Shown: positions 7,282-37,787, numbered from the stretch's first letter. The stretch is DNA of 64,000 nt from Gammaproteobacteria bacterium (GCA_026709505.1 JAPOSW010000120.1:1680-65679); one strand, 5' to 3'. Numbers and translations are program-made. Notes: generated by a model from the sequence alone, not told the origin.

Positions 7282-7331
7282 TAGTCTGAACTTGCCAGAC
7301 AATAACGCTCTCCTTGTTTTTCGGTCTCACG

Positions 7332-9164: not shown

Positions 9165-9437
9165 GCACATTGATCCAACATGGACTGCATTATCGGGCTC
9201 TTGTGAAATGAACACCTGCACCATTCGTTTCATGACTGTGCTATCATTTGATCAGCCTCCGGGTAGGCCGGGTAATGCGTTGTCCCGGTAGATGGTAGTC
9301 CTTTTCTTAAAAGGAGTTCGTACTGCATCGAGGTTAACGTCTCGTCCCGGAGGCACTCTTCCCGATGATCGCAAAACCCTCCGATTAGCAACACGTATTA
9401 TGCCTAGACTAAGTGCTCGGCAGTCTTCCGTCAGTCA

Positions 9438-9779
9438 ATGAGCTTGTATGCAAGAATTTACCAAATCGTTGCACAGATTCCGCACGGCAAGGTAATCAAT
9501 TATGGCAGCATCGCAAATGTGATCGGGTGTTCCGCCAGACAGGTCGGTTATGCCATGGCATCAATTCCCAATGACCTGGATCTGCCCTGGCATCGAGTCG
9601 TCAATTCAAGGGGCGAGATCAGCATGCGAAAACAGGGTCATGGAGACCTTGATCAAAAGCGCCTTTTGATTGAGGAAGGCGTGCTTTTTGACAGTACCGG
9701 ACGTATTGATCTGGAACATCACTGTTGGCGGATGAACCAGGATGTGCTTGACAGAGAAACGCTAGAAGCTTGCGGCTAG
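9438..9779 (+). CDS. Alkyltransferase-like (ATL) protein of the MGMT DNA-binding fold; active-site Cys replaced by Trp
   Basis: IPHGKVINYGSIANVIG...ARQVGYAM...LPWHRVVNSRGEIS. It has PWHRV instead of PCHRV, as in the YbaZ/Atl-type proteins I remember. Confidence 0.75.
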   Translation: MSLYARIYQIVAQIPHGKVINYGSIANVIGCSARQVGYAMASIPNDLDLPWHRVVNSRGEISMRKQGHGDLDQKRLLIEEGVLFDSTGRIDLEHHCWRMNQDVLDRETLEACG

Positions 9780-9794
9780 ACGATCGGACAGAGC

Positions 9795-10787
9795 ATGACT
9801 CCCACTATTGCAATCACCACCGGAGAACCTGCTGGAATCGGCCCCGATGTATGCGTGAAAGCAGCCATGCAGGCCCATGATGCCCACATCGTGTTTATTG
9901 CGGACCCAGCCATCATCGAAACAAGGGCCGCCCTGCTCGAAATTGATGTTGAAATCCGCGAGCATGAAATTGACAAGGATATGCCTAGACACCAGCCAGG
10001 GATAATGCAGATACTGTCGATCAAGGCGCCGTATCCTCCCGTTCCCGGCGAATTAAATCCGGGAAACGGTTCGTATGTTATCGAAATCATTGACAAGGCC
10101 GTTGACCTTTGCAAAACCGGTCATTGCGATGCCATGGTCACTGCATCGGTTCAAAAGAACGTAATCAATCAATCCGGCATACCTTTTACGGGCCATACCG
10201 AATGGATTGCCGACAGAACCGGTGCCAATCATCCGGTCATGATGCTGGCCAATCAAAAGCTCCGGGTTTGTCTCGCAACGATACATGTTCCACTTGCTCA
10301 AGTACCCAAATGCATTACCCGGGACAGCCTGTGCCGAGTCATCGAGATAATCCATTGCGATATGCAGAAGACGTTTGGACTGGAGAATCCCCGCATTGCT
10401 GTATGTGGATTGAACCCCCATGCCGGCGAGTCTGGACTTCTGGGCAGCGAAGAGATCGAGATTCTGGAACCTGCAATCGCCTCATTGCGGCAAGGAGGAA
10501 TATCCGTTGTTGGACCGATACCGGCTGATACTGCATTCACACCCCGAAACCTCGGCAATTGTGATGTTGTGCTTGCCATGTATCATGATCAGGGATTGCC
10601 GGTAATCAAGCACTCCGGATTTGGCGAAGTAGTCAACATCACGCTGGGACTGCCAATCATTCGCACTTCAGTAGATCACGGCACTGCGCTGGATCTGGCG
10701 GGCACAGGCAAAGCAGAGCATTCGAGCTTGTGTGCGGCTCTGGACATGGCCATCGATCTGTCAAGACGCAGATCTTCTCAAAATTGA
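9795..10787 (+). CDS. pdxA: 4-hydroxythreonine-4-phosphate dehydrogenase
   Basis: IAITTGEPAGIGPD N-terminus, FTGHTEW, GLNPHAGE and SVDHGTALDLAG motifs. Conserved pdxA-rsmA adjacency. Confidence 0.9.
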   Translation: MTPTIAITTGEPAGIGPDVCVKAAMQAHDAHIVFIADPAIIETRAALLEIDVEIREHEIDKDMPRHQPGIMQILSIKAPYPPVPGELNPGNGSYVIEIIDKAVDLCKTGHCDAMVTASVQKNVINQSGIPFTGHTEWIADRTGANHPVMMLANQKLRVCLATIHVPLAQVPKCITRDSLCRVIEIIHCDMQKTFGLENPRIAVCGLNPHAGESGLLGSEEIEILEPAIASLRQGGISVVGPIPADTAFTPRNLGNCDVVLAMYHDQGLPVIKHSGFGEVVNITLGLPIIRTSVDHGTALDLAGTGKAEHSSLCAALDMAIDLSRRRSSQN

Positions 10788-11563
10788 GTCGCATCACGCC
10801 TCGAAAGCGATTTGGCCAGCACTTTCTGACCGACCAGGTCGTACTCGAATCAATCATCAGGGCCTTTTCGCCCAAACGGGATGACCGAGTACTTGAAATC
10901 GGACCTGGGACTGGAATCCTGACCGAGGTCTTGCTGGATCACCTGGATTATCTGGTTGCAATTGAAATTGACCGAGATATGGTGAAGCACCTGAATCAAC
11001 GGTTCTCAAAAGACTCGCTCTCGATCCTTCAACAGAATGTTCTGGACACCAATATTCGATCGCTCGATGTTCCTGGAAAAAGCCCCAGCCTCCGGATTAT
11101 CGGCAACCTTCCATACAATATATCTACACCCTTGCTGTTTCACATTTTCGACAGCCTCGATATTGTCCAGGACATGCTGTTCATGGTCCAGAAGGAAATT
11201 GCTCTCAGACTTATCGCTCAGGCCGGTGATCGGAACTATGGCAGACTCTCGGTAATGGCCGGCTTGCATGTCGATACAGAACTTCTGTTTGATGTTCAAC
11301 CAGAGAGCTTTTCTCCACCCCCGAAAGTCACCTCATCCATGATACATATGCAGCCCAAATATCCTGCCATCAAGCCAAAGAACCGGAAAAGACTGGCAAT
11401 ATTAGTCAAAGCTGCGTTTTCGAATCGCCGAAAAACCTTGCGCAATGCACTGTCGAGAATGGTTGCCCCCGAGCAATACAAGCGACTCGGAATTGATGAT
11501 TCATTGCGTCCCGAGAACCTCGAACCCCACGATTACTTGCGACTATCGGAGATCAGGGACTAG
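10784..11563 (+). CDS. rsmA: 16S rRNA (adenine1518/1519-N6)-dimethyltransferase
   Basis: RKRFGQHFL, SAM motif LEIGPGTGILT, NLPYNISTP. The start is uncertain. TTG at 10784 overlaps the pdxA stop as TTGA and gives a normal-length N-terminus. The track ORF uses GTG at 10730. Confidence 0.85.
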   Translation: MSRITPRKRFGQHFLTDQVVLESIIRAFSPKRDDRVLEIGPGTGILTEVLLDHLDYLVAIEIDRDMVKHLNQRFSKDSLSILQQNVLDTNIRSLDVPGKSPSLRIIGNLPYNISTPLLFHIFDSLDIVQDMLFMVQKEIALRLIAQAGDRNYGRLSVMAGLHVDTELLFDVQPESFSPPPKVTSSMIHMQPKYPAIKPKNRKRLAILVKAAFSNRRKTLRNALSRMVAPEQYKRLGIDDSLRPENLEPHDYLRLSEIRD

Positions 11564-12288
11564 TCTCTCACAACAGGCAATCGGGAGAGATTCTCAAGGA
11601 TTGCGGTCTCGATTTCCGCATTCAACTCTCTGGTTTTCTTTCCATTGGTGCAAATGGGCTGACCGATGACGAGATCGATTGTTCCGGAATGCTTGAGCAA
11701 GCTGTTTTTTGGCCAGAACACGCCAGCATTGTGCGCTACCGGCACAACCGGCGCTCCTGTCCTTGCCGCAATCAAGGCCCCGCCAATCTGAAATTTTCCT
11801 GGCCGCCCCGGAGGCTGGCGGGTACCCTCTGGAAAGATGACCAGCCACCTTCCCTCCTTGAGACGACTGGTTCCCTGTTTGACCAGACTGTCCAGTGCCC
11901 GCATTTTTTGCTCGCGGTCTATAGCTACGGGGCGGGTCATTACAAGCCCCCAGCCCAGAAACGGTATTTTTAGCAGGCTTTTTTTGAGTAGATACGATTG
12001 GGTCGGGAAGATTAACTGGAAAGCCAGGGTTTCCCAGGCTGACTGATGATTGGAAATGATAATTGAGGGTTGATTCGGAATATTTTCCCTTCCCTGAATA
12101 CTGACTGTAATGCCGTAAATTACTGACAGAGTCCAGATGTTGAATCGTGCCCACTGAAGAATGATTCGATCCTTCAGGTTTGACGAGATACAGGAACCAA
12201 TGACTGCCAGCAGGAAAATGATGACAGCGCTCACGACCTGGCCAATTAGGTACACCAATGCACAAATGTACTGCATAGCACAATCCAA
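11560..12288 (-). CDS. plsC: 1-acyl-sn-glycerol-3-phosphate acyltransferase
   Basis: N-terminal TM segment, acyltransferase boxes NHQSAWET and VIFPEGTR. Confidence 0.85.
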   Translation of the reverse strand: MDCAMQYICALVYLIGQVVSAVIIFLLAVIGSCISSNLKDRIILQWARFNIWTLSVIYGITVSIQGRENIPNQPSIIISNHQSAWETLAFQLIFPTQSYLLKKSLLKIPFLGWGLVMTRPVAIDREQKMRALDSLVKQGTSRLKEGRWLVIFPEGTRQPPGRPGKFQIGGALIAARTGAPVVPVAHNAGVFWPKNSLLKHSGTIDLVIGQPICTNGKKTRELNAEIETAILENLSRLPVVRD

Positions 12289-12292
12289 CCGG

Positions 12293-12859
12293 TCAATGCG
12301 GTTGATGCAACAGCTCGGTCACAAACGATTCCAGATCAGGATAAACCGGGGTGCTTGCCAAATCCTGATGCTGGCCTGAGCGAATTTGCTCATAGGTACG
12401 CTCCCCCTTGCCGGTTCTTACCAGAATCGGCCTGGCTGAAGCCGCCCTTGCAGCCTGTAAATCCCTGAGGGAATCTCCCACTGCATGGACCTCCCGCAAA
12501 TCAACGTTTAACCGTTCAGCGAGTTTGAAGAACAGGCCCGGTGCTGGTTTGCGGCAGCTGCAATTCTCTTTCCTGCTGTGAGGACAGAAAAAAATCGCAC
12601 TGATCTCACCCCCGAACCGGGACAGTTCACTGAACATTTTCTGGTGGATTTTGTTCAGCATGTTGATCGACAGCAATCCCTGGGAAATGCCGGATTGGTT
12701 GGTAATGATCACGACAATGTATTTTTCGCGACCGAGTCTTGCAATGGCCTCAAGACTGCCGGGTATTGCCGTCCACTCTTCCGGGGATTTGATAAATGAA
12801 TCCGAATCCTGGTTGATCACGCCATCTCGATCAAGAATGACTAGCTTGAATTTATTCAT
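12293..12859 (-). CDS. gmhB: D-glycero-beta-D-manno-heptose-1,7-bisphosphate 7-phosphatase
   Basis: HAD motif LVILDRDGVIN, the Cys-rich insert CPHSRKENCSCRKP, and GDSLRD. Confidence 0.85.
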   Translation of the reverse strand: MNKFKLVILDRDGVINQDSDSFIKSPEEWTAIPGSLEAIARLGREKYIVVIITNQSGISQGLLSINMLNKIHQKMFSELSRFGGEISAIFFCPHSRKENCSCRKPAPGLFFKLAERLNVDLREVHAVGDSLRDLQAARAASARPILVRTGKGERTYEQIRSGQHQDLASTPVYPDLESFVTELLHQPH

Positions 12860-13193
12860 GCGATTTTTCGAAATGAGACACTCGAATTCTCCCCTTTATC
12901 ATTTTGGATGATCGCCCGGACAGTTTCTCCATTTTCTGCCAGAATGCCTCATTGAGATCGAATTTGGCTGCAATGGCACTGCCAAGCAGCAGTATCAGCA
13001 AGTCTGCGCATTCTTCCGATAGCTGGTCGATACCCTTGCCCTTGCTGACACAGGCGGATATCTCGCCGAGTTCTTCGGCCATCAAGGCAACCCGATACAC
13101 CATGTCTTCACCGACATACTTTTCAAATTCATGCTTGTCATGAAATGCCTGAACCGCTTGAAGCATCTCGGCGAAGGAGTCAGCATTCGTCAT
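12852..13193 (-). CDS. MazG-like nucleotide pyrophosphohydrolase family protein (small, all-alpha)
   Basis: MAEELGEIS ... LSEECADLLILLLG, an EExxE...ExxD-type MazG signature. The ATG at 13193 (MTNADSF) is chosen over the upstream track start. The gene overlaps the glyS stop and the gmhB start. Confidence 0.6.
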   Translation of the reverse strand: MTNADSFAEMLQAVQAFHDKHEFEKYVGEDMVYRVALMAEELGEISACVSKGKGIDQLSEECADLLILLLGSAIAAKFDLNEAFWQKMEKLSGRSSKMIKGRIRVSHFEKSHE

Positions 13194-15339
13194 GATTTTC
13201 GATCCTGATCTGGGAGAAATCAACCACATCCAGAAACATTGAGCGAATGGACTGCAGCAGTTTTATTCGATTATTCCGCACTGCTGGATTTTCGGCATTG
13301 ACCAGAACGTTGTCGAAAAACTGATCAATGCGAGTGCATATGCTGAACAGGCTGTGAAATCCTTTTGTGTAGTTTCCCCGTTGCCTGTCTTCAAGCACGC
13401 TGGATTCCATGTCAATCAATGCCTTGACCAATTCCTGTTCGCTCTCATTCTCGATGAGATCCATATCGATACTTGTGGGAGAAAAAGGTTCATTTGGTTC
13501 ATTGCGCAGAATATTGGAGATGCGTTTATTGATGGCAAGGATTGATTCCGCCATTTCTCGCTCTTCACTGACGAGCTTTTGAATCGACTCGATACGATTA
13601 ACAAGATCTAGCGGTCGGGTTGGCTTTCCGGCCATCGCAGCGTTCCAGAGATCAGTTTCATATCCTTGGTTCGACATGAGCTGTCGCGATCTTCCGAAAA
13701 CATACTCCATGAGGTTCTGACTCACTTTCCGTCCAGTATCGATATTATTCCAGCCCTGTTTCCGATACTGCCGCATGCCCCGACTGATCATTTCCTCCAG
13801 ATCCAGATCGATTCGATTTTCAATCAGAATCCGCAAAACGCCTAACGATGCACGGCGCAAGCTAAAGGGATCCCTCTCTCCGCTTGGAATATCGCCGCAT
13901 GCAAAAATTCCACACAGGGTATCGATTCGATCTGCAATCGCGACACTGCTCGCAATGCCGACAGCGGGCAGCTTATCACCCGAGAATCTCGGCAAGTAGT
14001 GGGATTCGACTGCTTCTGCGATACTTGTTTCGATTCCCTGTGCATCAGCATAGTACCGTCCAACTACCCCCTGAAGTTTCGGAAACTCGCCGACCATTTC
14101 CGTTACCAGGTCTGTCTTGCATAGCCGTGATGCCAGTTCGGTAGCAGCTTCATCCAGACCCAGATGACTTGAGATTTTTTTCGCCAGCCTGGCAATGCGT
14201 TGTGATTTGTCAAAAATGGAACCCAGTCTATTATGAAAGACCACTGTCTTTAATCGATCGAATCGATCCACCAGCGGTATCTTCTGGTCCGTGTGCCAGA
14301 AAAACTCGGCATCGGCGAGTCTCGCTCCGAGAACTCGCTCATTGCCTTTGCGCACTCGTTCCGGATCCTGGCTATCCAGATTGGTGACTACAATGAACCG
14401 GGATGCGATCCGGTTACTCTGATCAACCAGTGGGAAGTATTTTTGATGCGCGGTCATGGTTTCGATCAAGACTTCTTCGGGGAGCTTCAGGAAACGCTCA
14501 TCAAAAGAACCCTCCAGAGCAACGGGCCATTCTGTCAAGCCGACTACTTCATCCAATAGCTCCGGGTCGATTAAAGCCTTGAGACTGTTCGCTTCGGCAA
14601 GACGATTTACCTGTTCCTGAATTATCGATTTTCGAGACGAGTAGTCTGCGATCACAAAACCCTTCTGCTGCAGTTCATCAGCATAGCGGTCTGCATCGCC
14701 GATTGAAAAATGCTCCGGCGCATGAAAACGATGGCCACGAGTGATCCGCCCTGTTTTCAGTCCCATGACTTCAAAATCAAGAACTGCATGACCATGCAAG
14801 GCAAGCCCCCAGTGCACTGGACGCACAAATCCATGCTCGCAATCACCCCAGCGCATGCGCTTGGGGATTGGCAATTGACGAATCGCATCATTCAGTATTT
14901 CCGGGATGATGGTCTCGAGGGATTTCCCCGGAATCGCCCGGGTATATGCCAGCCACTGCTTCTTGTCAATTATGAGGGTTTCCAGCTCACTCACGGCAAC
15001 GCCGCAAGAGCGGGCAAAGCCCTCCGCAGCCGGTGTTGGAGATCCATTTTTCCCAAAAGCCGCCGACACTGAAGGCCCTTTCTTGAGCTGTTCCTGATCA
15101 GGCTGAACACTCAGAACCTGTTCAATCTTGACTGCGATTCTTCGAGGACTTGCAAAGGAATGCCAAGGCGAATTACTATCGCTCAGCATGCATGCCTCTC
15201 TTAGAGCATTACCGATAGACCCTGAAAAGGCATCTGACAGGGATTGCAGTGCCTTGGGCGGCAGTTCTTCCGTTCCTATCTCAATGAGAAGGGTATCTGC
15301 CTTGTTTTCCGTTGATGCTGATCTATCCGGCACCGGCAC
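13180..15339 (-). CDS. glyS: Glycine--tRNA ligase beta subunit
   Basis: [16 protein letters not shown]-terminal signature, length ~719 aa, directly downstream of and overlapping glyQ. Confidence 0.95.
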
Positions 15340-26504: not shown

Positions 26505-27707
26505 ATGATTGAACGTGACATCGCCCCTCGGTTAATCCAGGCTGCCAAGGCTTGGCCAGCAATCACCTTGACTGGTCCACGTCAAAGCGGCAAGACAACA
26601 CTTTGCCGCGCTTTATTTCCGGACAAGCAATACCTGTCTTTGGAGGCGTTGGATAAACGGGTTTTCGCTACAGAAGACCCTCGTGGATTTCTGGCTCAAA
26701 TGCCGGATGGGGGAATCATTGATGAAGTTCAAAGAGTACCCGAGTTGCTCTCCTATCTGCAGGGCTATGTTGATGACAATCCAGCGCCGGGGCGCTGGAT
26801 TCTAACTGGCTCTCACAACTTCTCTCTACTGAAATCAATCGGCCAGTCACTTGCTGGGCGCACCGCCGTTTATGAATTGCTCCCGCTTTCTCGCGAAGAA
26901 CTCCTGCGATTTGGAAACCATCCCAAAACCATGGAGGAAAGCCTCCTCATGGGCTCCTATCCGCGCGTGTTCGATGAGGGGCTAGAAGTCTCGGACTGGT
27001 TCGGGTCCTACACATCCACCTATCTTGAACGTGATGTGCGAATGATTGGCAACGTCAGCGACCTCGGGAACTTCAGGCGTTTTTTGATGCTGTGTGCAGG
27101 TCGGACTTCCCAGCTGCTGAATCTTTCATCACTTGCTGGAGATTGCGGGATTTCGCAACCAACTGCAAAAGCCTGGATCGATATTCTCGAAACTGGCTAT
27201 ATAGCTTTCCGGCTACCGCCACTGATCAGCAATCTTCGCAAGAGAATCGTAAAGATGCCCAAGCTGCATTTCCTTGATACTGGACTGATTTGCTGGCTGC
27301 TGGGAATTCATGCTCCAGAGCAACTGCACACGCATCCGCTTCGCGGGCCGATTTTCGAGACATGGATTATCGCAGAGCTTGTCAAGCGAAAAGCAAATCT
27401 GGGCGAGACCGGCAGTTTCTCATACTACCGAGACCAGAACGGTGCGGAGGCTGACCTGATTATTGAAAAATCGGCGGGCAAGATTATTGTCGAATGCAAG
27501 TCTTCTTCCACTCCATCGTCAAACCTCATTGGCAATGCCCTTCGTATTCAAGCGCATCTTAAACGAGCGGACATTCAATCCAATGTGGTTGCGGTGTACG
27601 CCGGTGATCAAGTCCAGCATCGAGAAAAGGGCAGTTTGATTCCCTGGAATAAACTCCATGCGATTGACTGGGATACACATGTCCAGCAATGCCGCAAAGC
27701 CATGTAA
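26505..27707 (+). CDS. AAA+ ATPase of the AAA_14/DUF4143 type (function unknown)
   Basis: Walker A LTGPRQSGKTTL, IIDEVQRVPEL Walker B-like, and the typical ~400-aa architecture of this family. Confidence 0.7.
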   Translation: MIERDIAPRLIQAAKAWPAITLTGPRQSGKTTLCRALFPDKQYLSLEALDKRVFATEDPRGFLAQMPDGGIIDEVQRVPELLSYLQGYVDDNPAPGRWILTGSHNFSLLKSIGQSLAGRTAVYELLPLSREELLRFGNHPKTMEESLLMGSYPRVFDEGLEVSDWFGSYTSTYLERDVRMIGNVSDLGNFRRFLMLCAGRTSQLLNLSSLAGDCGISQPTAKAWIDILETGYIAFRLPPLISNLRKRIVKMPKLHFLDTGLICWLLGIHAPEQLHTHPLRGPIFETWIIAELVKRKANLGETGSFSYYRDQNGAEADLIIEKSAGKIIVECKSSSTPSSNLIGNALRIQAHLKRADIQSNVVAVYAGDQVQHREKGSLIPWNKLHAIDWDTHVQQCRKAM

Positions 27708-27864
27708 TATGCCAACATGCCCTTCTCAGACTTTCATGAGGTTCAGTCTAATGTACTACAAGTTGATGAGGCCATTGCATCCATTCTCTTTTGGAAAGCC
27801 ATGGCGCATGAGATGGCTTCGGGCCTTCAGAACAAGCACTTGATCAAAAAGCATTGCCTATAAG

Positions 27865-29304
27865 TTACTCAATGGCTTGACCAATTCGGGAGACATGGAT
27901 AAGATTCGTTGTTCCTGAAGCTCCAAAAGGCAAGCCTGCTGTAATGACCACAGCCTGCCCCTGAGACGCAAACTCCTCAGAAACGGCTATTTCCTTGGCG
28001 GCATTAATCACCTGCAAGACATCTGCCTCCTGATTCGCCACATTAACAACTACTGGATGCACCCCCCAAACCATCGACATGTAGCGGGCAGCTCGAATGG
28101 ATGGCGTAATGCTCAAAATCGGGGATAGGGGGCGCTCACGAGCAACGCGCAAACTGGTGCTGCCGGAAGATGTATAGGTTACTGTTGCTGCAGCCGAATC
28201 CAGAATTTCAGTGATTCTCTGAATACTGTTACTGATTGCATCTGCCGTGGTATTCATGGGTTCAGGGTGCTGCGCCTGAATAATCGCCTGATACTCTGGA
28301 TCCTTCTCAACCTCCTCGATAATGCTATTCATCATCAACACTGATTCAACCGGGTATCGCCCTGCTGCCGATTCTGCTGACAGCATGACCGCATCGACGC
28401 CGTCATAAATCGCAGTTGACACATCCGAGGCTTCTGCGCGGGTTGGAAGCGGGTTTGACACCATCGAATCCAGCATGTGTGTTGCGACCACTACCGGCTT
28501 TCCAACCTGGCGGCAGGTTCGAATGATTTTTTTCTGGGCAATGGGGACCTGCTCTGGAGCCAGCTCAACGCCCAGATCACCGCGCGCAATCATAATTCCG
28601 TCACAAAGATCCAGAATTTGGTCGATGGATTCAAGGGCCGAGGGCTTTTCCAGCTTGACCATGATTCTGGCCCTTCCATCGACAGCCTGACGCATCATAT
28701 CAACATCCTGTGGAGTCTGGACAAATGACTGGGCAATCCAGTCCGCTCCATGTTCAAGGGCGAATTCAATATCCTTTTGATCTTTTTCGGTGATGCAGGA
28801 AATGGGAAGAACGACATTGGGAATGTTCACCCCCTTGTTTGCTCGAATCGTGCCCCCAACAATGACTTTGGTATCTGCATACGATTCTTCACAATGCGTT
28901 ACTTCCAGTTTTACACGACCGTCATCAATCAGGAGTTCACTGCCAATTCCCAAGGCTTTAAATATCTCAGGATGTGGCAATGGTGCCCGGCTTCTGTTGC
29001 CCGGTTCTGGATTTAGGTCGAGCCGATATGACGTATCATTTTGCAGGTCCACACCTTCCTGCAAAAATTCACCGAGACGGAGTTTCGGGCCCTGGATATC
29101 CGCCATGATGCCTACCGGTCGTGATACGGCTTCCTCATGTTTGCGGATGATTTGAATCCGTTCACCATGGCTGTCATGATTGCCATGGCTGAAGTTTAAT
29201 CTGAATACGTCAACTCCGGCATACAAGAGTTTTTCAATAATGTCTGATGTCGAACTTGCCGGACCCAGTGTTGCAACGACTTTGGCTTTTCGATTTCTAC
29301 GCAT
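27865..29304 (-). CDS. pyk: Pyruvate kinase
   Basis: MRRNRKAKVVATLGPAS, FRLNFSHG, IMIARGDLGVE, MLSAESAAGRYP. Confidence 0.95.
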   Translation of the reverse strand: MRRNRKAKVVATLGPASSTSDIIEKLLYAGVDVFRLNFSHGNHDSHGERIQIIRKHEEAVSRPVGIMADIQGPKLRLGEFLQEGVDLQNDTSYRLDLNPEPGNRSRAPLPHPEIFKALGIGSELLIDDGRVKLEVTHCEESYADTKVIVGGTIRANKGVNIPNVVLPISCITEKDQKDIEFALEHGADWIAQSFVQTPQDVDMMRQAVDGRARIMVKLEKPSALESIDQILDLCDGIMIARGDLGVELAPEQVPIAQKKIIRTCRQVGKPVVVATHMLDSMVSNPLPTRAEASDVSTAIYDGVDAVMLSAESAAGRYPVESVLMMNSIIEEVEKDPEYQAIIQAQHPEPMNTTADAISNSIQRITEILDSAAATVTYTSSGSTSLRVARERPLSPILSITPSIRAARYMSMVWGVHPVVVNVANQEADVLQVINAAKEIAVSEEFASQGQAVVITAGLPFGASGTTNLIHVSRIGQAIE

Positions 29305-29562
29305 GGATGTCCCTGGCGACAGTTGTGGATTCTTCTGAATTTGCTACGAGCAGATGCAGGGCAAATATAAATGGGATTTGAAGATATTGGTGTTCGAGCA
29401 GTTTATCGAACAAACACAATCGGGCAGTAAGATCACCGGTTATCCTCTAAAACGACGCCACGACCGGCTTTTGGTGATGACTCTTGGATAACGCCATAAT
29501 CATGCCTGGATCCTTACAAGTTTCAGACATCCGAAAACATGGTTCACTCTGATGGTTAAAAT

Positions 29563-29943
29563 TCAACAAGTTGTGTCATTTTCAGGATCAATCGAAGAAA
29601 AAATCTCTTGAATATCCTTCTTTAAGTCTGGCAGATCTTTTTCAATTACATTCCAGATTATATTTAAATCCAGGCTGAGATACCGATGGGCAATTACGTT
29701 CCGGAATACAGAGATTTCACGCCAGGGTATACCGTTATATTTTTGCTTGACTGGATCGCTCAAAAGCTGTGTTGATTCTGCAAGAATTTGCAAATTCCGT
29801 AAAACTGCATCCTGAACTATCTGTGATTCAAGGAAGGCTTTGCGTCCCTTCTGTGAATATTCCTCAATCCGGCCTATGTATGTAGGAATATGTTCCAGTA
29901 AATATGCATCTGAGAACGCATCGGAGAATAATTTTCTCCTCAC
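29563..29943 (-). CDS. hepT: HepT-type (DUF86/HEPN) toxin of an MNT-HepT pair
   Basis: RX4HXY motif in FRNVIAHRYLSLD. 4-nt overlap with the upstream nucleotidyltransferase gene. Confidence 0.8.
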   Translation of the reverse strand: MRRKLFSDAFSDAYLLEHIPTYIGRIEEYSQKGRKAFLESQIVQDAVLRNLQILAESTQLLSDPVKQKYNGIPWREISVFRNVIAHRYLSLDLNIIWNVIEKDLPDLKKDIQEIFSSIDPENDTTC

Positions 29944-30251
29944 AACTGCACCGCCTCCTTTATAACCCTCTCACGTAACGCTGGATCGATAACGTTTTCT
30001 GTCAGTACATCAAACCGTCGACCTAGAAGATCCCGTACATCCATCAACAATCCGTCCAAAGCCAGCCCACTCACACCTTCAGGAAGTGAAACCAGCAAAT
30101 CAACATCACTGGAATCATCAGCATCTCCCCTTGCCATAGAACCAAAAACACTTACTGATTCTATGCCGTAGGAACCGGCTATATCAAGAATGTTTTTTCG
30201 ATTTTTTTCAATCAAATCGTGCATTAATTCTCTCCAGAATGTCTGCCGCAC
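29940..30251 (-). CDS. mntA: MNT-type minimal nucleotidyltransferase antitoxin
   Basis: GSMARGDADDSSDVDLLV (GS...DxD) polymerase-beta-like nucleotidyltransferase motif. Confidence 0.8.
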   Translation of the reverse strand: MRQTFWRELMHDLIEKNRKNILDIAGSYGIESVSVFGSMARGDADDSSDVDLLVSLPEGVSGLALDGLLMDVRDLLGRRFDVLTENVIDPALRERVIKEAVQL

Positions 30252-30366
30252 TGAATCAGTTTACAGCATTTTCATTGTAGGCAATGATTTTAGAAACCTG
30301 TTTTAATGCCTTTTGATTTTCTGTTTTTGACAATAATATGCAAGATTCATGCGAATACACTGATCA

Positions 30367-31620
30367 TCAATAAGAGTCGCAAGTTAGATCACCTATAGCC
30401 CGCTCTAGCCATTGAATCGCCTGTTTGACACTCTCATCCGGTTGGGTGCAGTCAAAAGGCATACAAATCAGAAAATTTCCGTCAAAAAAGCGAAAGTGCA
30501 GAGGGTCTTTGAATCGCGGGTTTTGCGGATAGACCAACATCACAGTCTTACATTTATAACGTTTACTGTAAGCATAAATCTGATATAGGTCAGATTGCGT
30601 TATTTTATGTTTTGAGTCGACACGCTTCCCTTCGAATTTTTTCCATTTTGCATCCAATACAAACTGATGGGCTTCGTTCTTCATAAGGACTATGTCTGGC
30701 TTCATATTATAGGTTTCCTTCTCTTCAAACATAGATATTTGCGGTCCTTGAGTCTTTACCCCATACTCTTTTTGGCAGCTACGAAATGCAGTAGATACAA
30801 AATCCTCAAACACCTTTTCCATTGGAAATAACAGTGAGATATTTGCATGCTTCCCACTGTATGCGGTCAACCCCTTGTCAAACAGAAATAGGCCAACCCA
30901 TTGCATGACTGGACGATAGAGTGGCATGGAACGATCTATGTGATGAGCTTTCCAGTCTGATCGAATATTGATTGATTCCGGCACATCTGAAAAGGCCATA
31001 TCCATTTGATGGTGAAGTACTTGATTCTCTTCACCTCGAATACGTCTACCAAGTCTGTTGAGTGTACTTCGAATTAATCTGTTTGCGGGACGATTGACAC
31101 TGAATATCTCGTGTTCCACAAAAAGCCGCGATGCATTGACAAGATTCTGACGCAGGTGCTCTTGAAATAGGAGACGCCCTCGAAGATAGGGGAGATTTTC
31201 TTCGACTGGAATATAACGGTGAGCAAGTCCTGAACGGATCAACTTTTGGAGGTCTATCAGAAACAGTCGAACAAATATATCCAGCATTGGGAATCTGGAC
31301 ATGGAACGAATACTGCTTTCGTTTTCGGGTAGACTGCCTTTCAGACCACGGTAGCATCTCAGCATTTTGAGAAAAACCTGTTTTGCTTTCTCGTTATTGC
31401 TGTCGTTATCAGAGTCTACACCAAATTCAATTTTAGGCAGAATTTCGAGAACAAAACCATGTCGGGAGGTTATTACTCCGACATAGTTTTCCGCTATCAA
31501 ATAACCCTGGTATTGATGAAGACCTTTATCGGTTACATCCAATAGAGCGGAGGCATCTCTTTGAGAAATGGCATCACCTATCTTGAGTTTTTTATACTCG
31601 CACAGAGTTACATAGTGCAT
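30367..31620 (-). CDS. mcrC: McrC-like nuclease subunit of a McrBC-type restriction system
   Basis: 417 aa. The C-terminal PD-(D/E)xK-like region is NMKPDIVLMKNEAHQFVLDAKWKKF. The N-terminal region resembles McrC proteins I remember (LPKIEF..., RGRLLFQEHLRQN). Same strand as mcrB. Confidence 0.75.
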   Translation of the reverse strand: MHYVTLCEYKKLKIGDAISQRDASALLDVTDKGLHQYQGYLIAENYVGVITSRHGFVLEILPKIEFGVDSDNDSNNEKAKQVFLKMLRCYRGLKGSLPENESSIRSMSRFPMLDIFVRLFLIDLQKLIRSGLAHRYIPVEENLPYLRGRLLFQEHLRQNLVNASRLFVEHEIFSVNRPANRLIRSTLNRLGRRIRGEENQVLHHQMDMAFSDVPESINIRSDWKAHHIDRSMPLYRPVMQWVGLFLFDKGLTAYSGKHANISLLFPMEKVFEDFVSTAFRSCQKEYGVKTQGPQISMFEEKETYNMKPDIVLMKNEAHQFVLDAKWKKFEGKRVDSKHKITQSDLYQIYAYSKRYKCKTVMLVYPQNPRFKDPLHFRFFDGNFLICMPFDCTQPDESVKQAIQWLERAIGDLTCDSY

Positions 31621-31804
31621 CAGATTTATACTTTATTACGCAAAAGTAATAACTGCCGCGTAGGCGTACTTGAAAACAATCATCTGTCCGACCCTAAAAT
31701 TATGACTTTTTCGTATTTCTGATAGACATGGATTAAGAAGTTTTCATCTGAAATTTAGACCAATTTGGGCTGAAAATTAAGTCTCGGTGCCAAAAGATGA
31801 TAAA

Positions 31805-32386
31805 TCACGGACCTTCCGCAATGAGTTCTTTTTCCAGTTCGACAATCGCCGCAACCAGATTTCGAAAACTCGAGGATCGTTGATTTTTCATATCCAAATG
31901 CTGGCCAATCGCTCGAGAACCGGCAATTTTTTTATATTTGTTTTCAGTCAAGGACTGAAGAAGACGGCTCGGATTATCCTGTTCATCAGGGGAACGAAAT
32001 TTTCTTGATTGCTGCCTTTGCGATATTCCCCTTATGCCGAGCGCCTTTTCGACGGCAGACAAATCCGCCAGATAAAATGCCTCAAGTTCCTTGCATGCAA
32101 TGCGCACTCTGCACTTGCCTGCCTTTCCTGATTGATCGCATAATTCAAGCAGGCCGTTCTTGACCTTTTCACAGTCTGGATGACTGTCCTGATCGCGCAG
32201 AACAATAAAACGCACCCTTTCTTTCTGATAGCTGCGAATCTTTCTGACTAACTGTTTTTCTAGATCCTGCTTACCTTGAAATGGGATGAATCGGTGCTCT
32301 GTACCATCCTTCAACAATCTTGGCAACAAGGACTCCAGCATAGCCCCGGCAGAAAATTCTTCGAGAAGAAATACAATTTCCCTCAT
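31805..32386 (-). CDS. Small TOPRIM-like protein, DUF4276-type
   Basis: 193 aa. It has an N-terminal acidic IVFLLEEFSAGAMLESLLPRLL and a later FIVLRDQDS (E ... DxD arrangement typical of TOPRIM). ATGA start/stop overlap with the upstream ATPase at 32383..32386. The family name is from memory of ATPase+DUF4276 gene pairs, not from a search. Confidence 0.55.
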   Translation of the reverse strand: MREIVFLLEEFSAGAMLESLLPRLLKDGTEHRFIPFQGKQDLEKQLVRKIRSYQKERVRFIVLRDQDSHPDCEKVKNGLLELCDQSGKAGKCRVRIACKELEAFYLADLSAVEKALGIRGISQRQQSRKFRSPDEQDNPSRLLQSLTENKYKKIAGSRAIGQHLDMKNQRSSSFRNLVAAIVELEKELIAEGP

Positions 32387-33576
32387 CGCGGATTAGCCCC
32401 ATCAAAGAAGCCTTGCCTCCATAGATAGCCAAGCTGATCTCCCTCTTCGACATAAACAGCAATCTGTGAATGGTCATTGGCTCGCTGTATTTGCGAGAAA
32501 CCCTGATCCTTGACTAGCCAGCATACTTCTTCCAGATCAAGGGCATTCAGGAAATCAGGAGAGTGCGTTGTAACGAATACTTGCCCTCCTCGACTTGAGT
32601 ATTCGCGGAACTCTTCAGCGAGCTCCAGCATCAATTCCGGGTACAGCTGATTCTCCGGTTCCTCGATACAAAGCAGTGGATGCGGGTTCGGATCATGCAA
32701 TAGCACCAGATAGGCGAATATCTTGATCGTTCCGTCAGATACATAACGGTCAAGAAATGGCGTCTTGAAAGAACCGTCCTGGAAACGCATGGTCAGATAC
32801 CCATCTTCCATTAACCTAGGTTCAATAGACGATAAGCCGGGAATACGACGGCTCATGGTTTCAAGAATCTTGTCGAAAACCACTTTATGCTCCTGGTATA
32901 GATAACGCGCTACGAGTGGCAGGTTCTCCCCGGATTCGGACAAGTGCTCCGTTTCACCTGCGGCATCCTTTCGTCCCCTCGCAGCACTGATGTGAAAATC
33001 GGAAACATGCCAGTTTTCGATCAGGTTCAGCAAGGCATTGGCCGCCTTGAAGCGTTCAAATTGTCCTAGTCCCTTGATTGCCAGAGTATGAGGGGCTACA
33101 TTCTGCTGTTCTTGATCAAGTTCTTCGTCAGGCTTGTCGAAATCTTCCTCGTTGGCGATTGCGTACCCCTGGCCATTAGAAAAATCCAGAAAATGAAAGG
33201 GGCGACCATAGCGACCCCGCTTGTAGCGCAATATTTCCCTTCGAACCACTGGAGAGCCCTTTCGCTCATCAATCTCCAGCAAGTAGGTGACGAGTCGTTC
33301 TGACTTAGCGACGACCATTCGACACTGTATTTCAATACCTATCGAGTCCTGCTCTGGATTGCAGCCCCGGCTCAATACTTCAGGAAAACGCCCTCGCTTG
33401 TCCAGTGCACGACGGATATTCCCTTTCAGGCAGTCATGCAAAAACCCGAACGCATCAAGCAATGTTGACTTCCCTGTGCCGTTTGCACCAACGATGACCA
33501 GAAAGGGTGGAATATCTTCCAATCGTACATCGCGAAATGCCTTGAAGTTCTTCAGGTGAATTGTTTCGACTCTCAT
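32383..33576 (-). CDS. ABC/SMC-like ATPase (AAA_15/AAA_21-type, OLD/PARIS AriA/AbiLi-like N-terminal module)
   Basis: MRVETIHLKNFKAFRDV...VIVGANGTGKSTLLDA (Walker A), YVSDGT (signature-like), HPLLCIEEPENQLYP (Walker B/D-loop), VFVTTHSPDF (H-loop). The start at 33576 is preferred over the track start at 33666. Confidence 0.75.
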   Translation of the reverse strand: MRVETIHLKNFKAFRDVRLEDIPPFLVIVGANGTGKSTLLDAFGFLHDCLKGNIRRALDKRGRFPEVLSRGCNPEQDSIGIEIQCRMVVAKSERLVTYLLEIDERKGSPVVRREILRYKRGRYGRPFHFLDFSNGQGYAIANEEDFDKPDEELDQEQQNVAPHTLAIKGLGQFERFKAANALLNLIENWHVSDFHISAARGRKDAAGETEHLSESGENLPLVARYLYQEHKVVFDKILETMSRRIPGLSSIEPRLMEDGYLTMRFQDGSFKTPFLDRYVSDGTIKIFAYLVLLHDPNPHPLLCIEEPENQLYPELMLELAEEFREYSSRGGQVFVTTHSPDFLNALDLEEVCWLVKDQGFSQIQRANDHSQIAVYVEEGDQLGYLWRQGFFDGANPR

Positions 33577-33692
33577 AGATCGGTTATGCGTGATTATTCG
33601 TTTAGCATACTGATTTATAGTAGAAGTTCGGGACGGAATTTTAGACGGCCTATCAATAAGAAGCAAAATCCAGTCTTTGCGAATTTGTGAAT

Positions 33693-35786
33693 TTATTCCG
33701 ATGGGAGCTCCGATTCCGCTGAATGACTTAACTGATAGACTTTTCGATACTGATCTGGATCGGTCCAGGCCTTATCACTATCCGGCAAACGGGCATAAAT
33801 CGTCTGATCTTCGTTGAAGGTATCTATATCTAGATTGGGGTAATTTACCTCCTTCTTTACTACAAATGAGTTCTTTCCAAGCACAGAGTGGATTTTATTC
33901 CAGTCATTGAAAAAATATTCCTGAAGCAATGGGAAAATTTTGTTCTGGAAAGTTTCAGCCAAATTATCGATTGTTTTTATGTTCATAAGGTATGTATGGC
34001 CTATCTGATGCTCACGGTCAAGCAGTACAGTGATGCGTTCATTAATTGTCTTCAAAAGTTCGGACAAGTTTATTCCTTCAATTTCGGGGAGGTTCTTATA
34101 AACAGGCATCATTTCTGCGAAGGTAAATCGCCGTCTCAACGCTGTATCAAGCAACAAGATTGAGCGATCTGCAGTATTCATGGTGCCAAGAAGATAGAGA
34201 TTGCGGGGTACCCCAAACTCTTCGCCTGAATAAGGAAGGGTGACTGTTGTCTCATCTTCCCTGCCCAACCGCCTTGAATCCTCGATCAGCGTAATCAGTT
34301 CGCCGAAGATTTTAGCAATGTTGCCACGATTGATTTCATCAATAATCAAGACATAACGCTTACTCGGGTTATCTTTTGCTGTTTTGGCGATATTCTTGAA
34401 AATTCCGGGCTTTATTTCATAAGTCAGTTGCCCTTTAGTGGTGGTTTTTGGCTTTATACCTTCAATGAAATCTTCATAGGCGTAATTCTGGTGAAACGTG
34501 ATCATGGCAATCTGGCCATTTCCACCTTCCGGGTTGTAGCATGATTCTTTGAAAGTTTGGTTATCTGCATCATTCTCGCCTTGATGCTTACCGATAATTT
34601 TCAGACTTAGTCCTTTTGTTTTGTATGTTTTGCCAGTTCCCGGAGGGCCAAAGAGAATCTGGTTGAGTGGAAGTTGTTTCTCATTTGAATCCCTAGTTTC
34701 TTCCTCATGATTGTCATTAATGAGTTCAGATTTGTACCTAATAATCAAAAACGTATTTTTATATCTTGGTGATTCTTTAAACCAACCAATTATTTTCTCC
34801 TTGGCATTACTAAAGGCGGCAGATACCTGTTTTGCACCATCAGTTTCAAGATTACCCTTCTCTTTATTTATCCATACAACATGGATTCTTGCGTCTTCTT
34901 TCCAACCATTCTTGTAGTCATTCTCTAGAACAATGCCAATACCTCGCCCTTGCATCCCACGACGGACAAGAACAACATTACCTGGCTTTGGATCCTTCAC
35001 AGGATATTGTTTTTTTCCATTTATTGAAGTAGGTCCTCCAGTTCGAACCCAATTGTTTTCGTTGAACTCATCCCAATAATCTTCACCGTTACCGTACACA
35101 TCTGTGCCTATTTGAAAAAACTGGGGATTAGATGATAGGAGATCTTTTTGAAGATATGCGAAAAGGTTGATTTCCTTATAGTCGCAACTCGGAAACATAT
35201 CTCTGGCCTGACCGATATGCAGTTTGTACTTGTCCAGATTGCCGAGTTCTCTATTTGGACTGAACGATATAATATTTTTCAACCATTCATCAAAAGGACA
35301 GAATATGCTCGGGTTTATCAGGAACAAGGCCTGTGTTAGTTTGGCGAGGCCAACATTTTTAATCTTAAGTACTTCATCGAATTCGTCTGAATCAATTTTA
35401 TCGATACTGACTACAGCGCTCCGAAACAGTCTCCAAAGCAATTCCGGATTGCCTTCGCCATTTCCATGAAACAAGAGATTCCGAGGTATTGGAGTCGGAA
35501 ACGTAAACGCATGTTCCGATTCGAGAGATGGGATTTCGGCCAACTCGAACACCTCGGTGACGCTAGAATAGACACGATCTCTAGAATTGTCTGTGTTATA
35601 GCTTGCTATGGTATAGACAAACGAGAAAGGATCGATATTGTTGTCGCCATAATTTAACAGGCCCTGCGTGCCCTCTTCCTTCCAGTTGATATTTTTCGCC
35701 TTTTCAATCAGATATTTATTATCTTTTTCTGCAATTTTTTGGGCGAGTTGACTGAACCATGGAACCCAGTCATAGATTTCTTTCAT
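33693..35786 (-). CDS. mcrB: McrB-like GTPase/AAA+ subunit with a ~370-aa non-canonical N-terminal region
   Basis: LFGPPGTGKTY (aa ~379), VLIIDEINRGNIAKIFGEL, LLGTMNTADRS, RRRF: the McrB-type AAA+ GTPase motif set. The N-terminal 370 aa lack any motif I can name. Confidence 0.8.
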   Translation of the reverse strand: MKEIYDWVPWFSQLAQKIAEKDNKYLIEKAKNINWKEEGTQGLLNYGDNNIDPFSFVYTIASYNTDNSRDRVYSSVTEVFELAEIPSLESEHAFTFPTPIPRNLLFHGNGEGNPELLWRLFRSAVVSIDKIDSDEFDEVLKIKNVGLAKLTQALFLINPSIFCPFDEWLKNIISFSPNRELGNLDKYKLHIGQARDMFPSCDYKEINLFAYLQKDLLSSNPQFFQIGTDVYGNGEDYWDEFNENNWVRTGGPTSINGKKQYPVKDPKPGNVVLVRRGMQGRGIGIVLENDYKNGWKEDARIHVVWINKEKGNLETDGAKQVSAAFSNAKEKIIGWFKESPRYKNTFLIIRYKSELINDNHEEETRDSNEKQLPLNQILFGPPGTGKTYKTKGLSLKIIGKHQGENDADNQTFKESCYNPEGGNGQIAMITFHQNYAYEDFIEGIKPKTTTKGQLTYEIKPGIFKNIAKTAKDNPSKRYVLIIDEINRGNIAKIFGELITLIEDSRRLGREDETTVTLPYSGEEFGVPRNLYLLGTMNTADRSILLLDTALRRRFTFAEMMPVYKNLPEIEGINLSELLKTINERITVLLDREHQIGHTYLMNIKTIDNLAETFQNKIFPLLQEYFFNDWNKIHSVLGKNSFVVKKEVNYPNLDIDTFNEDQTIYARLPDSDKAWTDPDQYRKVYQLSHSAESELPSE

Positions 35787-35795
35787 AGATACTTC

Positions 35796-36182
35796 TCAGT
35801 TAATAGTCCCATAATGATATTTCAAGACATTCAACAAGTTGAGAGATTCAGCGATTCTGGCAAGCCGTTTGTCAGCTGTCCATATCAAAACATCTTTTTC
35901 TATTTTTGCTGATGCGACAAGATGAGCATCAATGTAGCCGATCCCCTTTTCCGCCATTATTATGTCGGGAGAGAAAAATCATAACTTCTTCATGACTTGC
36001 CACAACAACGCAGGGAAGCCTATTCCAAAGTTTTATCAAATGGTTTCGATTGTGCAAATTGCCGCACGCCAGTTCACCTATCACCATGGGGGGTATACAA
36101 ATATTTTCCCGAAACAGGGCTTAAAATACTCATCTCCGTATCGCAGATGATCGACCCAGGCTGATGTGTCAACCAAAATCAT
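35796..36182 (-). pseudogene. vapC: VapC (PIN-domain) toxin remnant with at least two frameshifts
   Basis: The ATG at 36182 overlaps the vapB stop (ATGA). MILVDTSAWVDHL... hits a stop after 33 codons at the C6 run (plus-strand G6 at ~36087-36092). It continues as MVIGELACGNLHNRNHLIKLWNRLPCVVVASHEEV in a second frame and IMAEKGIGYIDAHLVASAKIEKDVLIWTADKRLARIAE in a third. Confidence 0.75.
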
Positions 36183-36397
36183 TCGTTATCAGGATCAGGG
36201 TCAAATCTGCGTCTATGAATTGGGGTAAGTTGAGGCTCGCTTCCCCCTAACGCAGCAAGGCGACGGGCAGACTCTCGTTGAATCAGTGCTGTCAGAGCCT
36301 CCCTCATCAAAGCAGATTTTCCGTTTATACCGGTTAACTCAACCGCATCTTCAAATAACTTGCTGTCTATAGTAAGCGTGGTTCGCATGTCGATCAA
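36179..36397 (-). CDS. vapB: VapB-type antitoxin (RHH/phd-like), intact
   Basis: MRTTLTIDSKLFEDAVELTGINGKSALMREALTALIQRESARRL is typical of VapB family antitoxins. It lies directly upstream of the PIN remnant. Confidence 0.7.
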   Translation of the reverse strand: MIDMRTTLTIDSKLFEDAVELTGINGKSALMREALTALIQRESARRLAALGGSEPQLTPIHRRRFDPDPDNE

Positions 36398-36635: not shown

Positions 36636-37787
36636 TCAAGATAGACCCGCTGTTTGTTCTTTTATGAAACCCATCAGGCTCGGGATACCCGGCTCATAGC
36701 CAAGCTGTTCTCCTTCGGCTCTCATAACTCTCCAGATATAGCCGAGGTGCTCCAGTTTTTTTACGCTTTCCTTTTTCCCAGCCAGTTTGTTTACCTCCAG
36801 TATGGGAATTGGCCTATTTTCATTGTAAATAAACGCTCTGGCGATTTCTGCTGCAGGATGTAGCAATTCCTGATCATCAAGTTCAGAGAACCGTTTCGCA
36901 TACATCTGATGTATGCGCATATTGACTTTTGATTCTGCATCAAACACCGTTTCCATGCTAATGATGTGTTGTTCTTTATGAACCAGTTCTTCCATCAGAC
37001 ATTTCCCCCAAAGCTGAATAAAGAACGGGTAGCAGTGCGTCTTGATGGCCACTCTCTCCGCCACATTCTCAGCAAACTGTATGTCAAAAGACTCTAGCGG
37101 CTTGATTAAAGCCTCAACTGATTCTTGCAACGAAAGCCGCCCCAGCGGAAATATTTCGCAACGTTCCCAGAATGTAGCTTCTGCCTGACTCAAAGTACTC
37201 ATCAAGCCCGGTGTACCGGACAGTACAAGAAAGAAAGGAAGATTCTTCCACCGAACTGTCTGACTAGCATTCAGCAGGTCTTCTGCTGTTTTCTCATCCA
37301 GTCTTTGCGCTTCATCCACTATTAATACTACAGGATTGGCGGTACAACGCTCTTGTATGGCAGTCTTTATACCGTCCGAACGCTGAATTTTTAGGTTTGC
37401 CGTAGCCTCCGCAATAAATGCTTTAACTTTGCCCGTAATTTCCTGTACTACTGGAGCCGCCTCTCGGCCTTCCGACCTGATCCAGTGATCAAGCTTTTCC
37501 GGCGTTCTTATTTCTGAGGGCGTAACCCACAATATCTCTATGCTCTCTCCATATTCTTTGCTTGAATTATCTGCAAGGTTATGCAAAAGGGAAGTCTTGC
37601 CATTGCCCCGCGGCCCGTAGACAATCATATTCTGATATCCCTGATGCTTTTTCATTAGAGTATAGACTGCCAGTTGAAAAAACTGCTTCTCACTTTCGCG
37701 GCCAGCAAGAAACGGAGGGGCATCGCCGCCATCACCCGGGGTAAACAGCGTGAGCAACTCGCTTTTTTTATCAAGAATGCTATTCAT
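36636..37787 (-). CDS. Orphan ORC/Cdc6-like AAA+ ATPase (AAA_16/AAA_22-type) with a C-terminal wHTH-like tail
   Basis: FLAGRESEKQ...VYGPRGNGKTSLL (Walker A), VVLIVDEAQRLD (Walker B), C-terminal ...LEHLGYIWRV...GYEPGIPSLMGFI. No adjacent partner gene. Confidence 0.6.
   Translation of the reverse strand: MNSILDKKSELLTLFTPGDGGDAPPFLAGRESEKQFFQLAVYTLMKKHQGYQNMIVYGPRGNGKTSLLHNLADNSSKEYGESIEILWVTPSEIRTPEKLDHWIRSEGREAAPVVQEITGKVKAFIAEATANLKIQRSDGIKTAIQERCTANPVVLIVDEAQRLDEKTAEDLLNASQTVRWKNLPFFLVLSGTPGLMSTLSQAEATFWERCEIFPLGRLSLQESVEALIKPLESFDIQFAENVAERVAIKTHCYPFFIQLWGKCLMEELVHKEQHIISMETVFDAESKVNMRIHQMYAKRFSELDDQELLHPAAEIARAFIYNENRPIPILEVNKLAGKKESVKKLEHLGYIWRVMRAEGEQLGYEPGIPSLMGFIKEQTAGLS

Follow-up and report, generated by a model that had tools for sequence, protein, structure and literature searches.

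The window analysed here, a stretch of 64,000 nt from a Gammaproteobacteria bacterium (GCA_026709505.1, JAPOSW010000120.1:1680-65679), carries a McrBC restriction operon in which mcrB and mcrC are parted by two further genes, together recognisable as the known candidate system HEC-01. All four genes lie on the minus strand. Read along that strand they are mcrB (33693..35786), encoding a 697-aa McrB-type AAA+ GTPase with an N-terminal domain of ~355 aa; the HEC-01 ABC-type ATPase gene (32383..33576; 397 aa); the gene for the HEC-01 DUF4276 protein, an OLD-type, TOPRIM-like predicted nuclease (31805..32386; 193 aa); and mcrC (30367..31620; 417 aa). The inner pair is bounded by non-coding gaps of 116 bp on the mcrB side (33577..33692) and 184 bp on the mcrC side (31621..31804), and the ATPase stop and the DUF4276 start form an ATGA overlap at 32383..32386. 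This layout had been described in an original prediction made by a model from the sequence, and its genes, coordinates, strand, overlap and gap lengths were all confirmed in our list of open reading frames (ORFs). That list had the ATPase starting from a TTG at 33666 (427 aa). We take the ATG at 33576 as the true start, because the alignment to the HEC-01 profile hidden Markov model (HMM) begins at residue 31 of the longer ORF and because nucleotide homology to other loci begins precisely there, which also supports the ~397 aa first proposed.

The outer genes encode a predicted type IV, modification-dependent McrBC restriction system. In this family, modified DNA is bound by the N-terminal domains of McrB hexamers, which hydrolyse GTP and bring in McrC to cleave it. 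The McrB of the window matches AAA_5 in Pfam (3.6e-14) and the NCBIfam McrB model (3.2e-40, under the equivalog cut-off), and it carries the AAA+ GTPase motifs, with Walker A GPPGTGKT at 380, Walker B DEINR at 483 and NTAD visible in the translation. McrC matches PF10117 (8.4e-82; 275.1 bits, cut-off 23.9) and has the PD-(D/E)xK motif as D309 and D323-A-K325, with D309, D323 and K325 invariant in 59 homologues. The N-terminal ~355 aa of McrB found no match in the Pfam version searched and no sequence match in the PDB; DUF8425, AAA_5 and McrB_lid are listed for a protein identical to the window McrB in precomputed annotation from a newer Pfam. This region seems to be an uncharacterised domain for DNA recognition that evolves fast. 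Both mcrB and mcrC are full-length ORFs with intact motifs and are not decayed.

By profile match the inner pair is HEC-01 and not an unknown module. The ATPase aligns with PADLOC model PDLC04144 (HEC-01) over model positions 1-395 of 395 (1.3e-214, 710.6 bits) and the 193-aa protein with PDLC04143 (HEC-01) over positions 1-188 of 190 (1.6e-82, 273.8 bits). In Pfam the former matches AAA_21 (2.6e-32) and AAA_15 (4e-21) and the latter DUF4276 (2.2e-12; 48.1 bits, cut-off 30.2). The ATPase translation contains Walker A GANGTGKST, signature SDGT, Walker B LLCIEEPE and H-loop TTHS, whilst that of the 193-aa protein contains LLEE and VLRDQD, and its residues E10, D65 and D67 show no variation across 120 homologues. 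The AAA_21/AAA_15, DUF4276, AAA_5 McrB and PF10117 McrC assignments of the original prediction therefore hold, and the catalytic motifs that it saw kept in all four genes are present in the translations and in the alignments of invariant residues. The original prediction is corrected in that the pair is already catalogued in PADLOC. HEC-01 has been defined as an ABC ATPase plus a TOPRIM-like protein embedded in Hma, with a metal-binding site common with Burkholderia pseudomallei OLD (Payne et al. 2024, bioRxiv 10.1101/2024.01.29.577857). DUF4276 has been placed in the Toprim superfamily (PMC12065111), and AAA15/21+DUF4276 pairs fall in the same ATPase phylogeny as PARIS (PMC11464382).

The fold of the 193-aa protein was predicted with AlphaFold2 from 120 homologues, giving a mean pLDDT (predicted local distance difference test) score of 90.1. 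The model has four parallel strands (2-8, 29-35, 58-65 and 92-97) alternating with helices, in a three-layer alpha/beta arrangement with a Glu after strand 1 and a DxD after strand 3, as in OLD-type TOPRIM domains. A fold search of the PDB with this model returned a sole significant match, 6NK8_B, the OLD C-terminal TOPRIM region (E 3.1e-4, probability 1.00, TM 0.51); a sequence search of the PDB with the DUF4276 profile gave no matches. The protein is thus modelled as a TOPRIM-like, OLD-type predicted nuclease. The E...DxD layout first noticed by eye is therefore backed by the model, the fold match and the invariant residues, and domain and fold evidence agree with a split ATPase-nuclease pair in the style of OLD, PARIS and AbiL/Rlo.

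The closest relatives of the window McrC are encoded on two contigs, L082 (78% identity) and L081 (75%), both metagenomic. On both, mcrB and mcrC are 5 bp apart, pyk comes directly after and the ATPase-DUF4276 pair is absent. Further on past pyk, L081 also has a DUF4143/AAA_14 gene, and the chromosomal neighbourhood on both contigs is that of the window. With blastn, window 34671..33709 corresponds to L082 326..1303 and window 31629..30406 to L082 1304..2527. Against L081, the first 500 bp of mcrB are only 67% identical and the GTPase part 82%, and the middle of the N-terminal region (34664..35288) has no blastn match. In the relatives the junction reads ...TCGGAATAAATCTGATG..., with five bases separating the mcrB stop TAA from the mcrC ATG. 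The window reads ...TCGGAATAAAT/TCAC...(2,067 bp)...AAAGTATAAAT/CTGATG, where the strokes mark the boundaries of an insert (33690..31624, minus strand) that falls precisely in the interval from the stop codon of mcrB to the start of mcrC. A perfect 6-bp direct repeat, ATAAAT, flanks it. The left copy (33691..33696, minus strand) contains the mcrB stop TAA (33695..33693), and the right copy (31624..31629, minus strand), counted as part of the insert, is 3 bp upstream of the mcrC ATG; at the place corresponding to the left copy the uninterrupted relatives show GGAATAAATCTGATG. The window thus holds a 2,067-bp insertion with clean boundaries into a formerly abutting mcrBC, as the original prediction had supposed in proposing a nested defence insertion. 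No remnant of the cassette is visible in the 5-bp spacer of L081 or L082.

A second trace lies at the end of mcrB (33696..33713, minus strand), where 12 extra bases, CTCCCATCGGAA, code for LPSE directly before the stop and repeat TCGGA. They explain why McrB has 697 aa in the window and 693 aa in L081, and the insertion may have left them behind as filler or as a duplication. Microhomology-mediated illegitimate recombination would be compatible with the junctions, and so would a target-site duplication of 6 bp. Imperfect terminal inverted repeats were noticed by eye 5 nt from each end of the insert (AATTCGCAAAG and CTTTTGCGTAAT), and were rejected as non-significant: in local alignments compared with those of random window pairs and of shuffled ends, p was 0.02-0.27, depending on window length. 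The gap sequences have no match in 80 other HEC-01 loci and no second copy in the window, with the exception of locus L001, which has ~69 bp upstream (ATPase-proximal) and 18 bp downstream in common with the insert ends, the latter being the first 18 bp of the 184-bp gap. No mobile-element boundary of the cassette is definable from the insert ends, and no recombinase was seen in association with the insert.

The arrangement is stable. An identical ATPase is encoded on nine contigs. We retrieved six of them, which represent different samples and stem from ENA, Logan, JGI and NCBI assemblies; all have the same arrangement at 99.76-100% nucleotide identity, with the gene order TonB receptor-AAA_22-VapB-McrB-ATPase-DUF4276-McrC-MNT-HepT-pyk-DUF4143. 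All instances are therefore one lineage, and the recurrence of the order across genomes that the original prediction had envisaged came down to this lineage only. The window's relatives derive from metagenome assemblies, which would leave room for a chimera in which the pair had been joined to mcrBC by mis-assembly. However, the junctions are identical on all nine contigs, across assemblies from four sources and at least six samples, which rules out mis-assembly; a chimera is effectively refuted.

Whether the four genes recur together elsewhere was addressed from both sides. Of 373 HEC-01 ATPase loci in collections that hold one genome per species, the 80 best made up the set, each taken with flanks of up to 10 kb; at protein identities of 62-85%, they cover Beta- and Gammaproteobacteria, Hymenobacter, Bryobacteraceae, Planctomycetota, Verrucomicrobiota and others. 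A McrC profile of 120 homologues, phmmer with McrB and broader profiles from relatives of 33-50% identity (three profile sets) detected McrB or McrC within 10 kb at none of these loci from other species (0/80). This count rests on the profile searches; a tally of neighbouring Pfam domains took in the top 25 of 114 families and could miss a weak McrBC match. On the McrC side, the mcrB-mcrC gap was -35 to +51 bp in 76/76 informative metagenomic loci encoding McrC relatives, none of which held HEC-01 genes, and many of which are near-identical gut sequences, so that independent observations number fewer than 76. The distance of 2,072 bp in the window, with two genes in between, is hence as unusual as had been claimed. 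The two closest syntenic relatives likewise lack the four-gene order (0/2). A recurrent McrB-ATPase-TOPRIM-McrC system is therefore not supported, and the proposal of an undescribed composite of four genes gives way to these counts and to the uninterrupted mcrBC at the same locus in relatives.

HEC-01 itself is widespread and its settings are diverse. Homologues of the ATPase number in the thousands at 62-85% identity, and most of the 80 related loci have a 4-bp ATGA-type overlap. Their flanks are hypervariable, with 401 neighbouring proteins falling into 358 clusters. The sole recurrent host among the 80 loci is the type I restriction-modification (R-M) operon, with the order hsdR-hsdS-[pair]-hsdM (L003, L006, L008, L010, L014 and L037). 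One locus, L066, has HmaB-[HEC-03 + HEC-01]-HmaC and matches the published pattern exactly; the embedding there (5009..15139) is stacked, with HEC-03 (7920..9302 plus a small ORF) beside HEC-01 (10001..11763). At three loci (L015, L033 and L061) HEC-01 lies beside type IIG enzymes. Many others are found among housekeeping genes, including the closest relative of the cassette, L001 (85%, Candidatus Poriferihabitans), which is free-standing. At the HEC-01 loci we saw neither conserved ends of an element nor an adjacent recombinase, and no frequent carriage on plasmids or phages. Plasmids and phages were also considered as vectors of the cassette, and none was identified: ten plasmid records were <60% identical and one phage record 34%. 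The 62-85% identity of the ATPase spans at least five phyla, which is unusually strong conservation for a putative defence gene that lacks a demonstrated phenotype.

G+C content is 0.492 for the ATPase gene, 0.454 for the DUF4276 gene, 0.406 for mcrB and 0.418 for mcrC, against 0.493 for the window on average and 0.501 for pyk. The pair is thus less AT-rich than mcrBC, as had been judged by eye, but the idea that the cassette is the foreign part by this measure did not stand. The compositional outliers relative to the chromosome are mcrBC and the toxin-antitoxin genes, not the cassette. With the cassette near the window average, composition alone gives no order of arrival; the synteny comparison does. 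On the minus strand, no promoter- or terminator-like site was predicted in the 116-bp gap and no G+C-rich terminator or promoter in the 184-bp gap, both of which are weak evidence either way; the latter gap holds an AT-rich hairpin, TTATTAC-TTTTGC-GTAATAA. A consensus scan found a candidate sigma-70-like promoter (35854..35882, minus strand; TGGACA-17-CAGAAT, extended TG) ~68 bp upstream of the mcrB ATG. The region is overall poorer in such sites than shuffled sequences, and this one is a suggestion, not evidence. Given the shared orientation and the lack of a predicted terminator in either gap, read-through transcription of all four genes is plausible.

Such an arrangement would also suit a closer partnership, in which the embedded HEC-01 monitors McrBC and the four genes make up one two-layer system in this lineage. 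The ABC ATPase would sense inhibition of McrBC by a phage protein, or the escape of modified DNA from it, and in response release the TOPRIM nuclease. PrrC with EcoprrI, and PARIS triggered by Ocr, would be precedents by analogy. The four genes are co-oriented with no predicted terminator between the modules, their arrangement is unchanged in at least six samples, and relatives of HEC-01 have repeatedly settled in systems based on DNA modification, namely type I R-M and Hma, or next to type IIG enzymes. Moreover, embedded ABC-ATPase systems have been suggested to act as a back-up for their hosts (Payne et al. 2024, bioRxiv 10.1101/2024.01.29.577857). However, the pair does not recur with McrBC at 80 HEC-01 or 76 McrC loci, and the settings of the same, highly conserved pair range from housekeeping genes to several kinds of host system, which argues that no particular partner is needed. 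We consider a single two-layer system improbable, and what speaks for a guard-type functional link between HEC-01 and McrBC comes down to co-orientation; such a link has little likelihood. More speculative still is the idea that the cassette has an active way of inserting itself without a recombinase, of which the 6-bp ATAAAT duplication would be the mark.

It is also conceivable that the insertion was disruptive, that is, that it uncoupled translation of mcrC, altered the stoichiometry of the two subunits and set mcrBC on the way to decay in a neighbourhood serving as a dumping ground for mobile defence and toxin-antitoxin genes. The GGA within the relatives' junction sequence, by eye a possible Shine-Dalgarno element, is now upstream of the insert, and mcrC in the window is preceded by AAAGTATAAATCTGATG. 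As the GGA of the last mcrB codons no longer stands before mcrC, translation of McrC may be weaker. The neighbouring vapC is fragmented and a second insertion, MNT/HepT, is found just downstream. Among single-nucleotide polymorphisms (SNPs) between samples, there are 2 non-synonymous in mcrB and 4 non-synonymous plus 3 synonymous in mcrC, hence 6 non-synonymous to 3 synonymous for the two genes, compared with 0 to 5 in pyk; the ATPase-DUF4276 pair has none. Against decay, both ORFs are intact with all catalytic motifs. The ratio of non-synonymous to synonymous substitution rates (dN/dS) along the long branch to L081 and L082 (dS ~0.7) is 0.16 for mcrC and 0.27 for the C-terminal part of mcrB (0.05 for pyk), so that, on average, purifying selection has acted on McrBC. 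The non-synonymous changes spare the invariant residues of McrB and McrC, and D511V in McrB is not the Walker B aspartate. Furthermore, the SNPs are clustered: within 27801..35819, compared with contigs L165 and L166, there are 18 in 27.9-31.5 kb and 0-1 in 31.5-35.8 kb, which suggests a recombination tract with a boundary in mcrC near 31435..31468. The small counts and their clustering in this probable tract, too few to tell relaxed from purifying selection, therefore permit no conclusion on selection from the SNPs. We regard disruption as unlikely.

Taken together, these data favour the reading that HEC-01 is a separate module inserted once into the McrBC operon of one lineage, with the two modules acting independently; we put its probability at roughly 85%. 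In the ancestor mcrB and mcrC lay 5 bp apart. A 2,067-bp segment with the HEC-01 cassette then entered exactly between the mcrB stop and the mcrC start, bringing ~115 bp of non-coding DNA upstream and ~180 bp downstream, and the event left the 6-bp ATAAAT repeat and the 12-bp duplication-like filler at the mcrB end. The identities of the domains, the insertion and its boundaries, its confinement to one lineage and its stability from sample to sample are established by the data, and what follows on mechanism, co-transcription and independence is inferred. As an autonomous module resembling OLD and PARIS, HEC-01 probably uses its ABC ATPase as sensor and scaffold, and the small TOPRIM nuclease, translationally coupled to the ATPase, would cut nucleic acid on a trigger; this division of labour is drawn by analogy with OLD, Gabija and PARIS. 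McrB, with its N-terminal DNA-reading domain and AAA+ GTPase, would recruit the PD-(D/E)xK nuclease McrC. The four genes are probably co-transcribed from upstream of mcrB, with the two modules functioning independently.

Several points weigh against this account. It is the distribution of the two modules that suggests their independence, and sampling was limited (80 of 373 HEC-01 loci and redundant McrC loci), so that rare recurrences elsewhere are possible; a census of McrBC systems describes McrB and McrC as 'occasionally separated by intervening genes' (Bell et al., PMC11090510). The syntenic relatives are not very close (dS ~0.7), and hence the insertion is not datable; no empty site was seen in any conspecific strain. 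Lastly, the defence role of HEC-01 itself is unproven, as it gave no phage protection in the sole published assay, in E. coli (Payne et al. 2024, bioRxiv 10.1101/2024.01.29.577857).

The surroundings of the operon are also rich in accessory genes. Upstream of mcrB, the vapB antitoxin gene is intact (36179..36397, minus strand), whilst vapC is fragmented into a 53-aa C-terminal PIN piece (35796..35957) and an overlapping 52-aa ORF in a different frame (35929..36087). This remnant, directly upstream of mcrB, looks like a toxin pseudogene, and the candidate mcrB promoter falls within it. Beyond vapB is an AAA_22/AAA_16 STAND-like ATPase gene (36636..37787, minus strand) with no defence-family assignment, which is absent from the L081 stretch retrieved. 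Downstream, outside the four-gene set, a MNT/HepT toxin-antitoxin pair (29563..30251, minus strand; Pfam NTP_transf_2 and HepT-like) lies between mcrC and pyk and differs between samples by 5 non-synonymous and 2 synonymous changes. L081 and L082 both lack the region containing it (window 30405..29310), and the pair is a second, independent insertion between mcrC and pyk. With the HEC-01 insert and this one, the mcrB-to-pyk interval is therefore a small hotspot for accessory genes. Past pyk, the DUF4143/AAA_14 ATPase gene (26505..27707, plus strand) matches the PADLOC candidate PDC-S01 (1.2e-97) and is conserved in L081. Between pyk and DUF4143, L081 has a PDDEXK_9/AAA-ATPase_like gene (6543..8129) that the window lacks (27674..27863). 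The mcrB-pyk-DUF4143 interval thus differs among relatives through gain and loss of accessory genes.

In summary, the locus is a new instance of published defence-in-defence embedding, with a host type, type IV McrBC, outside that work. Two small aspects are new. McrBC can host an embedded cassette, a class beyond the Hma, BREX, DISARM and type I R-M systems of the published guilt-by-embedding survey, and the embedding event is seen before and after at base-pair resolution. This view bears on how embedded cassettes enter and on why gene junctions are hit without destruction of the host. HEC-01, as an unusually conserved module (62-85% identity in several phyla), is a reasonable target for functional work. 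Were the pair to guard McrBC after all, type IV restriction would be a further class of host whose inhibition an ABC-ATPase module monitors.

With regard to known systems, the outer genes resemble canonical McrBC of E. coli K-12 in having a McrB with GPPGTGKT, DEINR and NTAD, a McrC with PF10117, and mcrB followed by mcrC on one strand. They differ in that the window genes are not adjacent, the NCBIfam equivalog cut-offs are not reached and the N-terminal domain of McrB is unrelated by sequence to the solved ones. The inner pair shares with PARIS (AriA/AriB) and OLD (P2 Old, Gabija GajA) the combination of an AAA_15/AAA_21 ABC ATPase and an E...DxD TOPRIM nuclease. AriA HMMs match the window ATPase at 3e-30, far weaker than the HEC-01 models, and Old models also match the pair far more weakly than these. 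PADLOC and Pfam scans gave no match of the 193-aa protein to the AriB model or DUF4435. Its nuclease is DUF4276, neither the DUF4435 of AriB nor TOPRIM_Old, so the partner typical of PARIS is lacking; and unlike class 1 OLD, ATPase and nuclease are split into two genes. MADS similarly has an ABC ATPase and a DUF4276 protein in MAD3 and MAD4, whose NCBIfam models match the pair weakly (120.4 bits against a cut-off of 420, and 20.8 against 160). Among the proteins scanned, models for mad1, mad2 and mad5-mad7 had no match and mad8 gave weak, sub-threshold matches only, to McrB and the AAA_22 ATPase, and the locus is therefore not assigned to MADS.

The nesting has closer parallels. PrrC in EcoprrI, RloA/RloB and AbiL are likewise accessory ATPase/nuclease genes nested co-oriented in a restriction operon; the window pair has no match to the RloB or PrrC families, and AbiLi matches the ATPase alone, weakly. 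HEC-01 loci in type I R-M operons have stop/start overlaps on both sides, whereas the window pair has flanks of 116 and 184 bp. The closest likeness is to HEC-01 as published, with the same two genes (ABC ATPase and DUF4276/TOPRIM-like) on one strand, ATGA-coupled and matching the HMMs over nearly their full length. The host differs, being type IV McrBC and not Hma; the hosts analysed for embedding were Hma, BREX, DISARM and type I R-M only (Payne et al. 2024, bioRxiv 10.1101/2024.01.29.577857). As in the published examples, the window pair lies co-oriented within another defence system, and here an empty site allows the insertion to be placed to the base pair.

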